Origin: a plasmid
Sequence record: NZ_CP028351.1
Reading direction: 5' to 3' (one strand)
DNA length: 64,000 bases
The notes under the pieces were generated by a model. That model worked only from the letters and a program-made list of their open reading frames with translations, was not told the origin of the DNA and did not search any database. Shown here piece by piece: positions 49,160 to 60,815 of this stretch (the stretch's first letter is position 1; every line of letters begins with the position of its first letter). Position numbers and translations under genes: made by a program.

Positions 49160-49477
49160 ATGAGAGAGTTAACATCTGTTGAAATGCAGAACGTTTCAGG
49201 CGCAGGTTTTTTTGATTTCATCGGTTCAGTCGTTGTAGGTGCAGCTGCAGGTATTACTGCTTTCGGTCTTAAATGGGCCATGAGCGGCGGTAGCGCGGGC
49301 GGCGTCCTGGGCGTTGGTATTATCTCTGGCGGTGTTGGTCTGATCGTGGGTGCCGTTGTGGGGCTGGTCGATGGCGCACTTTATGGCGCGATGAATGGCT
49401 GGGAAACAACTGCAGGCTGGTTCAATAATATTGTTGAAAACCAGCTTGACCTGGGAACAGGTGTAATTACTGCATAA
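49160..49477 (+). CDS. class II microcin precursor with double-glycine leader (MccV/MccL-type)
   Basis: The leader MRELTSVEMQNVSGAG is nearly identical in pattern to the colicin V and microcin L leaders (MRxLTLNELDxVSGG/AG). The core is Gly-rich and hydrophobic. RBS GGAGAT. Confidence 0.8.
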   Translation: MRELTSVEMQNVSGAGFFDFIGSVVVGAAAGITAFGLKWAMSGGSAGGVLGVGIISGGVGLIVGAVVGLVDGALYGAMNGWETTAGWFNNIVENQLDLGTGVITA

Positions 49478-49486
49478 GGAAAAATC

Positions 49487-49708
49487 ATGCGTGAATTGAA
49501 AACAAATGAAATTGACGGCGTTAGTGGCGGCTCATTAACTTCCGTCATTTTAGATTTCTTTAAACAGATTGGCGGAAGCTCCAAAGAAAAAACTGAGTGG
49601 GTACGTCCGGAATCAATACCAGAAGCTAACCCGGTTAGCGGTACTGCTTTTGGTATGGGTATTGTCGGTGTTGCTGCGGCCGTAGTTTTCGGCCTGCTGA
49701 TGTTCTGA
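49487..49708 (+). CDS. second double-glycine-leader peptide (microcin-like) with C-terminal TM helix
   Basis: Leader MRELKTNEIDGVSGG. The 58-aa core ends in the hydrophobic helix GMGIVGVAAAVVFGLLMF. RBS AAGGAAA. Starts 10 nt after the first precursor. Confidence 0.7.
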   Translation: MRELKTNEIDGVSGGSLTSVILDFFKQIGGSSKEKTEWVRPESIPEANPVSGTAFGMGIVGVAAAVVFGLLMF

Positions 49709-49812
49709 TTTACCAGGAAGGCGACAGACTTCCGGGAAGGAATGAGCGCTTGTCATAAAAATCAATCGCTCATAATTAAATGTTGTTCACTATTTTATAC
49801 AAAGGAAAGTAT

Positions 49813-58190: not shown

Positions 58191-58207
58191 TTTATAAGGT
58201 CTGTTCT

Positions 58208-60391
58208 GTGTTGTTATTAGAGAAACTCAATTTCAAATGGTTTAACCGCTTACCGATGATTCGTCAGTCACAGGCAGCGGAGTGTGGTCTGGCTTGTCTT
58301 GGCATGATAGCTAATTATCACGGCCATCAGATCGACATGATCACGTTACGTCGTCAGTTCGCTACATCGCTCAAAGGCGCCACACTGGCTGATGTCATCG
58401 CTATGGCACAACAGCTCAATATGACTTCCCGCGCACTGCGAGTGGAAATGGAAGAGCTGTCTAAACTGCGCATGCCCTGCATTCTTCACTGGGAACTGAA
58501 CCACTTTGTGGTATTGAAGAAAGTACGCGGCAATAAAATCACCATTCACGATCCCGCGCGTGGGATCCGCGAACTGACCTTTAAAGAAGCATCGACCGCC
58601 TTTACCGGTGTCGCGCTGGAGCTGGTTCCCTCTTCCACCTTTGAAGTAAAAGAAGAGAAAGAAAGCATCTCAATGATGAAGCTGGTGGGCAGCGTGACCG
58701 GGGTAAAGTCTGCCTTTGCTCAGGTGCTCATCCTCTCAATCGCACTGGAGCTATTCGGCGTCCTCGGCCCCTTCTTTATGCAATGGGTGATGGATATGGT
58801 GCTGGTTTCTGCTGACTATTCTTTACTGTCGCTGCTCGGTGTGGGCTTTATCATGATCGCGCTGTTTCAGACTATCGTTACAGCGTTGCGCTCATGGGTA
58901 ATGAGCTGGTTCTCAAGCCAGCTTAGTGTGCAGTGGACCATAAACGTCTGTCACCATATGTTAAAGCTGCCGCTGGAATGGTTCGAATCACGCCACGTCG
59001 GAGACATTCTTTCTCGTTACGGTTCGCTTAATACGATTCAGAGTACACTGACTTCCCGTTTCATCAGCACCGTACTGGACGGTGTCATGTCAATCGTTAC
59101 GGTAGTGATGCTTTTCATCTATAACGCGCAACTGGCGTGGCTGGTCATTGGACTTTTTCTCGCCTATGCACTGCTGCGTTTTATGGCCTACGATCCGGTT
59201 CGCCGCGCCAATGAAGAACAAATCATCAGCTCGGCCCGTACCCAATCGTCTCTGCTTGAAACGCTGCGTGGGATCCAGGCGGTTAAAACCAATAATAAAC
59301 AGGTACCCCGACTCTCGGCTTACATGAACTTTCTGGTGGATACCACCAATAAAGGCATCGTGATTCAGAAGCTCAACATCCTGTTCGGTTCGGCTCAGGG
59401 ACTGCTAACCTCAGTGGGCCGTGTGGTTCTGGTCTGGCTTGCTGCCCTGCAAGTTTTGGATGGCAACTTCTCTGCCGGTATGCTGACCGCCTTTATCAGC
59501 TTTTCAGATCAATTCATGAGTCGCGGTTCAGGTTTGATCAATGCCATCATCGATTTCCGTATGCTGAGAATGCATGGTGAACGCCTTGCCGATATTGTTC
59601 TGTCTGAAACAGAAGTCAGTTCTGAGGGCAATCCAGGTCTGGTTAGTAAGGAAACCGACAAGGAGACAGACGTACCGCAGGATATCAAGCTTATCAATCT
59701 CCGTTTTCGTTATGCGCCGACTGAACCCTGGGTTGTCGATGGTGCAAATCTGGAGATTAAAGCGGGTGAAAGCCTTGCCATCGTGGGGCCATCCGGCCAG
59801 GGTAAAACTACGATGGCCAAACTTATTCTTGGCCTGCTACACCCGGAAGAAGGCACCATCACCGTGGGTGGCATGGACATCACTCAGACCGGACTTGAAC
59901 ATCACCGTAATCGCATCGGCTGCGTAATGCAGGATGACATTCTCTTTTCAGGCTCAATCAGCGAGAACATCAGCTTCTTTGATAACGAACCCGATCACGC
60001 AAAAATTACCCGCGTGGCCCGTCTGGCTCAGATTCATGGCGATATCATGAAAATGCCGATGAATTATCAAAGCCTTGTAGGTGATATGGGCTCGTTTTTA
60101 TCAGGTGGCCAGCTACAACGTATCCTGCTGGCGCGCGCACTCTATCGCGAACCTAAAATCCTGGTACTGGATGAGGCCACCAGTCATCTGGATATCTATA
60201 ACGAAGCCCAGATCAACAACGCAATTAAGCAGATGATGATCACCAGAATCATCATTGCACACCGTCCGGAAACTATCCGCAGTGCCGATAAAATCGTCCT
60301 GTTAAATAACGGTAAGCTCAGCGAAGTCACGGCAGAGCAGTTATTTGGCCAGACAACAACCCATAATAAAACGGAGATTACCCATGGATAA
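58208..60391 (+). CDS. peptidase-C39 ABC transporter, CvaB-like (double-glycine leader cleaving exporter)
   Basis: C39 domain with catalytic Cys (QAAECGLACLGMI) and His (HFVVL). Six-TM domain, then Walker A GPSGQGKTT, LSGGQLQR and Walker B ILVLDEATSHLD. GTG 58208 is preferred as the start (it aligns with the CvaB N-terminus). The track ATG 58142 would overlap cvaA by 49 nt. Confidence 0.85.
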   Translation: MLLLEKLNFKWFNRLPMIRQSQAAECGLACLGMIANYHGHQIDMITLRRQFATSLKGATLADVIAMAQQLNMTSRALRVEMEELSKLRMPCILHWELNHFVVLKKVRGNKITIHDPARGIRELTFKEASTAFTGVALELVPSSTFEVKEEKESISMMKLVGSVTGVKSAFAQVLILSIALELFGVLGPFFMQWVMDMVLVSADYSLLSLLGVGFIMIALFQTIVTALRSWVMSWFSSQLSVQWTINVCHHMLKLPLEWFESRHVGDILSRYGSLNTIQSTLTSRFISTVLDGVMSIVTVVMLFIYNAQLAWLVIGLFLAYALLRFMAYDPVRRANEEQIISSARTQSSLLETLRGIQAVKTNNKQVPRLSAYMNFLVDTTNKGIVIQKLNILFGSAQGLLTSVGRVVLVWLAALQVLDGNFSAGMLTAFISFSDQFMSRGSGLINAIIDFRMLRMHGERLADIVLSETEVSSEGNPGLVSKETDKETDVPQDIKLINLRFRYAPTEPWVVDGANLEIKAGESLAIVGPSGQGKTTMAKLILGLLHPEEGTITVGGMDITQTGLEHHRNRIGCVMQDDILFSGSISENISFFDNEPDHAKITRVARLAQIHGDIMKMPMNYQSLVGDMGSFLSGGQLQRILLARALYREPKILVLDEATSHLDIYNEAQINNAIKQMMITRIIIAHRPETIRSADKIVLLNNGKLSEVTAEQLFGQTTTHNKTEITHG

Positions 60392-60815
60392 GACTATTTG
60401 CCGCTTCACTGAAGGCACAATTACCTTGCCGGAAGGCTACTGCGAACGAACACTGAATACGCTGGCTGATACCCGATCTGTTCTGCCACCAATCACTATT
60501 TCCCGTGATAAGTTAGGCGACCATAACAACCCGGAAGAGTATATCCTTAGCCAGCTCGCTATCCTGCAAAAGCAGATGAAAGACTGGCAACAGGAAGCCC
60601 ATCAGCCAGTAGTTTTGGGGGACAACCTGACTACGGGAATCATGATCAGTTATGATTTCCTGCGACCAGATAATCTTCGTCTTTATCAGAAACAAGCTTT
60701 ATTCACGCTTAATATGGAAGACATATTGATTTTCTCTCTGTCGAAGGCGAGTCCTATTACCGCAGCAGATCTTCAGTTGTTCTCAGATACGCTAAAGAGT
60801 TTCCGTACCTGGTAA
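60384..60815 (+). CDS. DUF1795 (DcrB/EagR-like) family protein
   Basis: N-terminal pattern FTEGTITLPEGYxERTLNTLAD...ITISRDKLGD...EEYILSQLAILQKQM fits the DUF1795/DcrB-fold family. ATG 60384 overlaps the cvaB-like stop by 8 nt. Confidence 0.5.
   Translation: MDKTICRFTEGTITLPEGYCERTLNTLADTRSVLPPITISRDKLGDHNNPEEYILSQLAILQKQMKDWQQEAHQPVVLGDNLTTGIMISYDFLRPDNLRLYQKQALFTLNMEDILIFSLSKASPITAADLQLFSDTLKSFRTW

Follow-up and report, generated by a model that had tools for sequence, protein, structure and literature searches.

Class II microcin systems are generally seen as compact, with precursor, immunity, adaptor and transporter genes together and the TolC of the cell borrowed, and adhesin and bacteriocin genes are known to share genomic islands in E. 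coli. The stretch of DNA considered here, 64,000 nucleotides of a Pantoea vagans pPag1-type plasmid (record NZ_CP028351.1; "the window" below means this whole stretch), holds a locus at 49160-60815 in which the two kinds of genes are interleaved. All genes lie on the plus strand, in the order pep1-pep2-fimA-chaperone-usher-adhesin-RR-TolC-HlyD-PCAT-DUF1795, where pep1 and pep2 are putative peptide precursors, RR is a response regulator and PCAT is a peptidase-containing ABC transporter. A first-pass annotation had described a microcin locus split by a chaperone-usher fimbrial operon, and had asked whether two modules are juxtaposed or the locus is a composite. Open reading frames (ORFs) and Pfam matches place the precursors, the complete fim operon, the regulator and the exporter with its own TolC where that annotation had them, on one strand; the genes that it named are correct, and it left the DUF1795 gene undescribed. 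The question is why a fimbrial operon should stand between peptide precursors and the pump that presumably exports them.

The answer that we favor is that the locus is a conserved composite cluster of two units, which would make hydrophobic peptides and an adhesive fimbria and carries a self-sufficient type I secretion system (T1SS); for this reading with its full proposed mechanism, the probability is put at roughly 0.55. Two components can be held with confidence on sequence grounds, namely that the cluster encodes a PCAT-type T1SS with two predicted cognate double-glycine peptides, and that the association of this T1SS and its peptides with a chaperone-usher operon appears to be evolutionarily maintained. 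Export of pep1 and pep2 by the cluster pump, a chaperone role for the DUF1795 protein, co-transcription, cooperation of fimbria and peptides, and short-range antagonism as the purpose are the parts that we infer. No literature on such a microcin-fimbria architecture was found, and the locus goes unmentioned in the C9-1 genome paper and in the pPag1 evolution preprint.

Conservation of the Gene Order

At the DNA level, the interval 48500-61000 shares 98% identity with pPag1 of P. vagans strain C9-1 and 82-94% with plasmids of P. agglomerans and P. alfalfae, and no close DNA relatives of it were found among E. coli genomes. The gene order is shared by about 50 loci of Pantoea, Erwinia, Rahnella and Gibbsiella, reached via the peptide, the usher, the transporter or DUF1795. 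A transporter search with one genome per species gave 14 related loci; eight have the full order from pep1 to DUF1795 (seven named Pantoea, including P. agglomerans and a P. latae with a decayed pep2, and one Erwinia sp.), each with a convergent fidL-marT pair on its 3′ side, and of the remaining six, two are truncated at contig ends, two have suffered deletions and two, of an Enterobacter type, have no fimbriae. Homologues of pep1 were followed to 60% identity, and all those sampled keep the order, among them Gibbsiella quercinecans (minus the regulator only), Erwinia billingiae and a metagenome with a 63%-identical pep1; entry through DUF1795 led to Rahnella variigena, again with the same order. 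Metagenomic relatives of the usher (66-100% identity) lie in cluster order in 34 of 35 cases as far as their contigs extend, the exception being a locus with a deletion that runs from inside pep1 into the usher (L064). Outside the Enterobacter type, every sampled member of the pep1 family stands directly 5′ of fimA, and pep2 is the last gene before fimA also in Gibbsiella, Erwinia, metagenomic loci and the Burkholderia ubonensis type described below.

The usher points the same way from the fimbrial side. Plasmid searches gave no usher outside the cluster with an identity between 80% and 60%; among the plasmid matches listed, the closest outside ushers belong to an Enterobacter cloacae plasmid (39.6%) and to MrkC (38%), and the usher of the B. 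ubonensis cluster shares 45%. Neither the plasmid nor the metagenome usher searches found a close free-standing relative outside such clusters.

Rotated Architectures

Beyond these loci, the same set of genes recurs in other arrangements. In B. ubonensis, plasmid pRF23 carries hybrid histidine kinase-RR-TolC-HlyD-PCAT-pep1-pep2-like-fimA-chaperone-usher-adhesin, with identities to the window of 34% for RR, 44% for TolC, 51% for HlyD, 64% for PCAT, 55% for pep1, 50% for fimA, 41% for the chaperone, 45% for the usher and 33% for the adhesin, and with a Gly-Ala leader on the pep2-like peptide. This plasmid was reached by a protein-level plasmid search with the mature peptide of MccP05, in which the low-complexity filter removed nearly all matches. 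An exhaustive pep1 profile search added two further contigs, of 59-67% GC, with the order PCAT-pep1 (doubled in one)-pep2-like-fimA-chaperone-usher. In P. anthophila and P. deleyi, the plasmid slot of the window cluster is occupied by fimA-chaperone-usher-adhesin-second chaperone-LuxR-TolC-HlyD-PCAT-DUF1795-peptide, with identities of 34% for the usher, 31% for LuxR, 38% for TolC, 50% for HlyD, 59% for PCAT and 24-26% for DUF1795, and a peptide 38% identical to pep1; the window type and this type look like an old polymorphism at one locus.

The window, B. ubonensis and P. anthophila types are rotations of one cyclic order, that is, peptide(s), fimbriae, regulator, TolC, HlyD, PCAT and (DUF1795). 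Most components diverge in parallel across the lineages, with the regulator and the adhesin fitting less well. The precursors are directly contiguous with the exporter in the B. ubonensis, P. anthophila and Enterobacter types, and every relative found has the two in linkage. The first-pass annotation had named as what would overturn its reading that they are never linked in relatives and that the exporter is shown to secrete a different substrate; with linkage in every relative, this combination does not hold. Its picture of a locus split by fimbriae holds in that the genes are interleaved, and is better replaced by rotation of a conserved set than by insertion into a classical microcin locus. 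Since the same set recurs rotated in distant bacteria, the adhesion and peptide-export genes appear to have been kept together rather than to be neighbors by accident, and of the two options first raised, synteny clearly favors a conserved composite over chance juxtaposition.

Other relatives of the transporter keep part of the set. In B. stagnalis, two opposite-strand chaperone-usher operons flank a PCAT of 61% identity with TolC and HlyD, and no double-glycine peptide was found near this T1SS, relaxed patterns included. In Burkholderia sp. FXe9, the order is HlyD-PCAT-TolC (50% identity), without fimbriae.

Shared inheritance could also produce the nesting, if a class II microcin system and a conventional fimbrial operon, functionally unrelated to each other, simply travel as one block that occupies a variable slot on the pPag1 chromid and on related replicons. 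Modules do persist singly in natural variants (discussed below), and the slot, which lies between an IprA-like regulator and fidL-marT, is found emptied or decayed elsewhere. GC content at third codon positions (GC3) is 0.39-0.46 in pep-fim-RR-TolC, somewhat below the 0.54-0.57 of HlyD-PCAT. Against this stand the occurrence of the set in Betaproteobacteria and in a second Pantoea allele, rotated and with most components diverging in step, the place of pep1 right before fimA in every sampled member of its family outside the Enterobacter type, and the failure of the usher searches to find close relatives outside such clusters; linkage by chance would hardly be expected to outlast rearrangement and such divergence. 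We regard mere co-travel as unlikely. Composition was also considered as a mark of separate module origin and set aside, the GC3 difference being only modest.

Two Predicted Double-Glycine Peptides

Both precursors begin with a 15-residue leader. In pep1, the leader is MRELTSVEMQNVSGA, followed by G, with a predicted cut after Gly-Ala; in pep2, it is MRELKTNEIDGVSGG, followed by S, with a predicted cut after Gly-Gly. In both, positions -4, -7, -12 and -15 are hydrophobic, with Glu at -8 and Gly at -2. The double-glycine leader consensus is well established, and a pattern search of the window found ORFs with such leaders at pep1 and pep2 only. Mature pep1 would have 90 residues and 8.7 kDa, with 24% Gly, a grand average of hydropathy of +0.97 and no Cys; it contains an invariant glycine zipper (G60-G64-G68-G72-G76) and the motifs GAA and GAV, and its aromatic, polar tail is conserved. 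Mature pep2 would have 58 residues and 6.1 kDa; its amphipathic N-terminus is joined by a polar linker to a single C-terminal hydrophobic helix. Pep1 has no match in Pfam or NCBIfam, and its family is small, with 60 representatives in an exhaustive profile search of 1.84 billion proteins.

The designation of pep1 and pep2 as microcins is a prediction from sequence. Among the features that define class II microcins, the locus has precursors below 10 kDa with a double-glycine-type leader, a C39 ABC transporter and an HlyD-type adaptor, whereas no gene for a small membrane immunity protein, conserved across divergent loci, was found next to the precursors. Pep1 is identical to MccP06, a candidate microcin in the supplements of a recent study, where it was found by the cinful pipeline and secreted from E. 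coli via CvaAB for testing (PMC13174018). Its best match among verified microcins was MccL (47.5% over 40 residues), and in the alignment it clusters with MccE18, MccP05 and MccE19, apart from all ten reference microcins; its genomic context was not discussed (PMC13174018).

Peptides of this kind could instead be mainly non-toxins, serving as structural or surface-active partners of the fimbriae in aggregation or biofilm, for example as self-assembling, amyloid-like glycine-zipper peptides. MccAB1 of A. baumannii forms amyloid fibres via GAV motifs and drives biofilm formation in a way that does not depend on killing, and the GAA motif of MccE492 has been linked to amyloid (PMC13188072). Pep1 has both motifs as well as the zipper, no immunity gene was found, the antibacterial activity of MccP06 is weak, and the precursor genes are the leader cistrons of an adhesin operon. 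However, short sequence motifs are weak evidence for an amyloid role of pep1 or pep2, loci with decayed peptide genes still have their fimbrial genes, and MccAB1 is antibacterial too, hence structural and toxin roles are compatible. A mainly structural function seems improbable to us.

A Self-Sufficient Exporter

The exporter had been called CvaA/CvaB-like and suited to double-glycine leaders, and its HlyD-type and C39 ABC transporter domains bear this out. The distance of about 6 kb from the precursors is likewise right, with 5.9 kb from pep2 to the TolC gene and 8.5 kb to the PCAT gene. The best match of the PCAT in the PDB is PCAT1 (4RY2; E 2.9e-103), and its ECG Cys, HFVV His and HDP Asp align to DCG, HFVV and ADP of PCAT1. 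We take these aligned Cys, His and Asp residues to be the C39 catalytic triad, with the Cys as residue 26 in the numbering of the 727-residue protein. The channel passes the cut-off of TIGR01844, the model for the type I secretion subfamily of TolC proteins, and falls short of the housekeeping TolC equivalog NF007002 (171 vs. a cut-off of 495 bits), and is therefore a paralogue of the housekeeping TolC. The observation that the exporter has its own TolC-family gene is thus confirmed; such a gene is normal for this transporter clade and absent from described E. coli systems. It accompanies the related PCATs of the Enterobacter type and of Burkholderia sp. FXe9, loci without fimbriae, so that a cluster-encoded TolC is a trait of the transporter clade and is not peculiar to the window cluster.

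Probable Transcription Units

Genes in the cluster overlap or are 9-105 nt apart, and two kinds of RNA element lie between them. Two stem-loops without a clear U-tract follow the pep2 stop codon, and hairpins stand at the same positions, with differing sequences, in 14 divergent loci (ViennaRNA, 70 nt after pep2); they may stabilize the peptide-coding part of the mRNA or attenuate read-through into fimA. A GC-rich stem-loop that resembles an intrinsic terminator follows the adhesin gene. Its position is kept in 13 divergent loci, with seven base pairs, three of them with compensatory changes, and with a U-run in most loci; the tail is weaker in the window itself. This hairpin was missed by the terminator scan and was found by eye and by comparative folding, which gave no hairpin between the RR and TolC genes, where the spacer is conserved. 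Because the conserved terminator follows the adhesin gene, the precursors would belong to the fimbrial transcription unit and not to that of the exporter, and the cluster would consist of two units, pep1-pep2-fimA-chaperone-usher-adhesin and RR-TolC-HlyD-PCAT-DUF1795. In Pantoea sp. GD03673, a deletion coincides exactly with the pep-fim unit.

The promoter of the pep-fim unit probably lies within the AT-rich region 5′ of pep1 (Table 1), where no ORF is conserved across divergent loci. A phase-variation switch was also sought there and rejected; the region has only short AT-rich matches, and repeats are not above the expectation for AT-rich DNA. In the C9-1 annotation, no recombinase separates the autotransporter from the regulator pair that lies upstream of pep1.

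The Response Regulator

The regulator had been described as FimZ-like. It is a response regulator, and the specificity for FimZ did not hold, since it scores 89.9 bits with the RcsB model (cut-off 235) and 53.2 bits with the FimZ model NF007403 (cut-off 271), both below cut-off. Its best PDB match is RcsB (E 2.8e-20), and an ITD motif aligns to Asp56 of RcsB, so that the phospho-acceptor Asp is conserved. The gene is missing in Gibbsiella and annotated as two fragments in pPag1 of C9-1 (L001, 14385-15046). Because it is split in C9-1 and intact in the window, expression of the exporter may differ between C9-1 and the window strain.

A regulator of this type makes one further role for the peptides conceivable, as secreted signals comparable to the double-glycine pheromones of Gram-positive bacteria, sensed via a two-component pathway that ends in the cluster RR and controls fimbriation. 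The acceptor Asp is intact, and the RR of B. ubonensis is preceded by a hybrid histidine kinase. The clusters of Pantoea, Erwinia and Rahnella have no kinase, though, and the RR is missing in Gibbsiella and broken in C9-1 with the rest of the cluster intact; moreover, hydrophobic, Gly-rich peptides of 58-90 residues resemble pore-forming bacteriocins rather than known pheromones. Signaling is ranked far down, as very improbable, because the Enterobacterales clusters lack a kinase and the regulator is dispensable in nature.

The DUF1795 Protein

The last gene of the cluster encodes a protein of the DcrB/Eag family. Its ATG overlaps the PCAT stop codon by 8 nt, it has no signal peptide in its sequence, and a gene of this family stands 3′ of the PCAT gene in three lineages. 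SciW is the only PDB sequence match (E 2e-7), and with an AF2 monomer model (pLDDT 89), the top Foldseek hit is the complex of SciW with the Rhs1 transmembrane domain (TM 0.76), followed by EagT6. One sampled relative (L029; 41-42% identity) is a canonical Eag protein that adjoins a class I prePAAR-PAAR-Rhs effector. The window protein shares with the Eag class the fold, the cytoplasmic location and a length of about 145 residues, and has no prePAAR/PAAR effector as neighbor; no PAAR, Rhs or type VI secretion (T6SS) genes were found in the locus or its annotated flanks, where its neighbors are PCAT and fidL. To our knowledge, the Eag/DUF1795 chaperone family has so far been known from type VI secretion only, and no report linking DUF1795 to microcins was found in the searchable literature. 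Eag chaperones bind effectors at their N-terminal transmembrane helices, and it is common for a genome to carry surplus Eag genes without a prePAAR partner (PMC7773334).

Most likely, the DUF1795 protein is a chaperone for the hydrophobic pre-peptides, the alternative being a cytoplasmic immunity factor. It shares 63% identity with its counterpart in P. latae, which has a homologous cargo (PCAT 78%), as opposed to 42% with that in Enterobacter, which has a different one (PCAT 74%), so that it diverges along with the cargo at similar transporter divergence, which is counted in favor of a chaperone role.

Proposed Mechanism and Points Against It

Under the composite-cluster reading, peptide production would be coupled to fimbriation, since the precursor genes ride on the fimbrial operon. 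The DUF1795 protein, as a close relative of type VI chaperones that shield transmembrane helices, would keep the glycine-zipper pre-peptides soluble in the cytoplasm before export. The C39 domain would then recognize the 15-residue leaders and cut after Gly-Ala (pep1) or Gly-Gly (pep2), and the mature peptides of 8.7 and 6.1 kDa would exit in a single step through the ABC-adaptor-TolC channel. The likely purpose would be short-range, membrane-active antagonism of the class II microcin type, where fimbriae hold cells together.

Several findings weigh against this mechanism. On the side of the peptides, a significant drop in growth of E. coli W3110 with MccP06 was seen in just one trial out of two (PMC13174018). 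Small ORFs (25 residues or more) around pep1 were compared with 17 divergent loci, and none is conserved without stop codons; the absence of a conserved immunity ORF beside the precursors is unusual for a self-toxic microcin and leaves pep2 and the DUF1795 protein as the only unassigned candidates. On the side of the chaperone, the Burkholderia clusters do without DUF1795, and three loci are deletion remnants, two of which keep DUF1795 as an intact 144-codon ORF although the transporter genes are deleted or fragmented (L023, 10001-10435; L071, 4476-4910); such retention after loss of the pump resembles an orphan immunity gene more than a dedicated chaperone. As to linkage, Enterobacter sp. BIGb0383 and relatives (PCAT 74%) have no fimbriae and carry a different 76-residue Gly-Gly peptide divergent from TolC-HlyD-PCAT-DUF1795; pep2 has decayed in P. 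latae, and pep1 is a pseudogene on a P. latae-like contig, both with intact fim genes; and Pantoea sp. GD03673 has kept RR-TolC-HlyD-PCAT and lost peptides and fimbriae. These natural variants show that each module can persist without strictly depending on the others, and transfer as a block could by itself hold the genes together, with no functional cooperation. The promoter scan, moreover, was at chance level (26 sites vs. 24.1 expected), and among remote members of the pep1 family the gene context was sampled for four. An antisense ORF over pep1 was also considered as an immunity gene and proved to be a frame artefact.

A stronger claim is possible, and we offer it tentatively, as somewhat doubtful: peptides, fimbria and secretion system might be a single undescribed machine. 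Cell contact or aggregation through the fimbriae would then be needed by the glycine-zipper peptides, which diffuse poorly and would act as kin-discriminating contact toxins or as matrix fibres, an Eag-type chaperone would have been recruited from type VI into type I export, and the two Pantoea alleles of the slot would be alternative recognition-and-attack specificities.

Features of the Locus and Its Surroundings

Four co-oriented genes, each with a Pfam match above the gathering score, make up the chaperone-usher operon (Table 1). In the adhesin, the pilin domain covers residues 205-353, and the N-terminal domain has no Pfam assignment.

Table 1. Positions of the cluster genes, RNA elements and flanking features in the window.
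Feature	Coordinates	Strand	Basis
AT-rich non-coding region 5′ of pep1 (GC about 0.33-0.37), presumed pep-fim promoter/regulatory region	48124-49159		Composition profile
pep1, 105-residue precursor with double-glycine-type leader	49160-49477	+	ORF and leader pattern
pep2, 73-residue precursor with Gly-Gly leader	49487-49708	+	ORF and leader pattern
Two stem-loops right after the pep2 stop codon	49713-49773	+	ViennaRNA fold
Major fimbrial subunit, FimA-like	49813-50343	+	Pfam Fimbrial, FimA; RefSeq start in C9-1
PapD-like periplasmic chaperone	50405-51142	+	Pfam PapD_N (E 1.8e-45), PapD_C
Outer-membrane usher	51169-53754	+	Pfam PapC_N, Usher (E 3.4e-164), PapC_C
Two-domain fimbrial tip adhesin, 353 residues	53767-54828	+	Pfam Fimbrial (E 8.4e-16), C-terminal half only
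Intrinsic-terminator-like stem-loop after the adhesin stop codon	54831-54854	+	Direct reading and comparative folding
NarL/FixJ-family response regulator, RcsB-like, 220 codons	54884-55546	+	Pfam Response_reg, GerE
TolC-family outer-membrane channel	55583-56905	+	Pfam OEP; TIGR01844 (230.3 bits vs. cut-off 225.15)
HlyD/CvaA-type membrane fusion protein	56931-58190	+	Pfam HlyD_3, Biotin_lipoyl_2, HlyD_D23; TIGR01843 (E 6e-38, below cut-off)
PCAT, CvaB-like, 727 residues	58208-60391	+	Pfam Peptidase_C39, ABC_membrane, ABC_tran
DUF1795 (DcrB/Eag-family) protein, 143 residues	60384-60815	+	Pfam DcrB (E 9.7e-20)
arnBCADTEF operon	roughly 24800-32200		Annotation of C9-1 pPag1, 68264-75612
Pertactin-type autotransporter	43478-46384	+	
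IprA-like HTH_46 regulator	47533-48123	-	
fidL-like/marT-like pair, convergent to the cluster	60891-62218	-	
Periplasmic sugar-binding protein gene, two ORFs	62393-63079 and 63146-63460	-	

The slot that the cluster occupies is bounded by conserved backbone genes, the IprA-like regulator and fidL-marT, and the region between the autotransporter and fidL-marT behaves as a variable slot. The IprA-like regulator is 81-99% identical across loci whose neighboring genes share just 46-70%, which is unusually strong conservation for a gene of a variable region, and it is kept in the three deletion-remnant loci with a recovered upstream flank (L015, L023 and L064). The P. anthophila/P. deleyi allele (L068 and L070) likewise lies between the IprA-like gene and fidL-marT, with an extra marT/fidL-like pair. 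The autotransporter and the convergent fidL/marT-like pair, which flank the cluster in the window, also flank clusters of Pantoea, Erwinia billingiae and Rahnella, jointly or singly; we take these flanks to be reminiscent of the misL-fidL-marT set of Salmonella SPI-3. The passenger of the autotransporter has seven tandem Asp-Ala-Thr repeats (DATDAT...) immediately before the beta-barrel linker.

Farther away, the periplasmic sugar-binding protein gene forms two ORFs in the window and one 924-nt coding sequence in C9-1, and may be a pseudogene or reflect a sequencing frameshift. By correspondence with the annotated C9-1 plasmid, the arnBCADTEF operon (lipid A aminoarabinose, cationic-peptide resistance) and several sulfur-scavenging gene sets would lie upstream on the replicon, in the same approximate interval.

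Significance and Comparison With Known Systems

Two things make the locus interesting, namely its linkage, which is conserved and rotated, and the presence of a type VI chaperone family within a type I pathway. If the linkage is functional, it would couple adhesion with antagonism at short range, or else with matrix building, in Pantoea, Erwinia and Burkholderia that live with plants, among them commercial strains for biocontrol, P. vagans C9-1 for instance. Some of the "surplus" Eag homologues without a prePAAR partner would then gain a concrete role, and a means of keeping very hydrophobic peptides export-competent would come into view.

Closest in function would be colicin V/microcin V (cvaC, cvi, cvaA, cvaB and the chromosomal tolC) and the class II microcin clusters, which likewise combine a double-glycine precursor below 10 kDa with a C39 ABC transporter, an HlyD-type adaptor and a TolC-type duct. 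In E. coli Nissle 1917 and CFT073, microcin M/H47, F1C fimbriae and salmochelin are encoded on one horizontally acquired island, although their adjacency was not confirmed in the papers checked; these loci are presumably neighboring and self-contained, with precursors, immunity and exporter contiguous, and we know of no recurrence or rotation of them in other taxa. Described microcin clusters hold PCAT, membrane fusion protein, microcin and immunity genes "but not TolC" (PMC13174018). By contrast, the window cluster has its own TolC, an additional RR and DUF1795 and no adjacent immunity gene that could be found, and its precursors sit on a fimbrial operon, 5.9-8.5 kb from the exporter. The MccAB1 locus of A. 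baumannii (microcin, immunity protein McaI, cupin McaB, membrane fusion protein McaC and PCAT McaD) is comparable in that a class II microcin is joined by an accessory protein and has a surface or biofilm role (PMC13188072). It differs in having no fimbrial genes, cluster TolC or DUF1795, in that its accessory protein is a cupin, and in the presence of a small two-helix immunity protein. PCATs of A. baumannii plasmids, which may or may not include McaD, are 47.7% identical to that of the window.

The Eag chaperones of the pairs SciW-Rhs1 in Salmonella and EagT6-Tse6 in Pseudomonas resemble the DUF1795 protein in fold, sequence, cytoplasmic location and length of about 145 residues. Unlike them, the DUF1795 gene ends a type I secretion operon, overlaps the PCAT stop codon and has no PAAR, Rhs or T6SS gene nearby. 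Known Eag clients are hydrophobic transmembrane helices (PMC7773334), whereas the presumed clients of the DUF1795 protein are free peptides with double-glycine leaders.

Finally, type 3 (Mrk) and type 1 (Fim) operons share with the window the order of major subunit, chaperone, usher and tip adhesin, followed by a LuxR-family regulator, and differ from it in that the window has double-glycine peptide genes before the major subunit and a T1SS after the regulator. The whole transporter clade brings its own TolC, usually a fimbrial operon and a regulator, and in three lineages a member of the DUF1795 family as well. What is new in comparison with these systems is a secretion cluster of the class II microcin type joined in evolution with a fimbrial operon, a regulator, a TolC of its own and an Eag-type protein.

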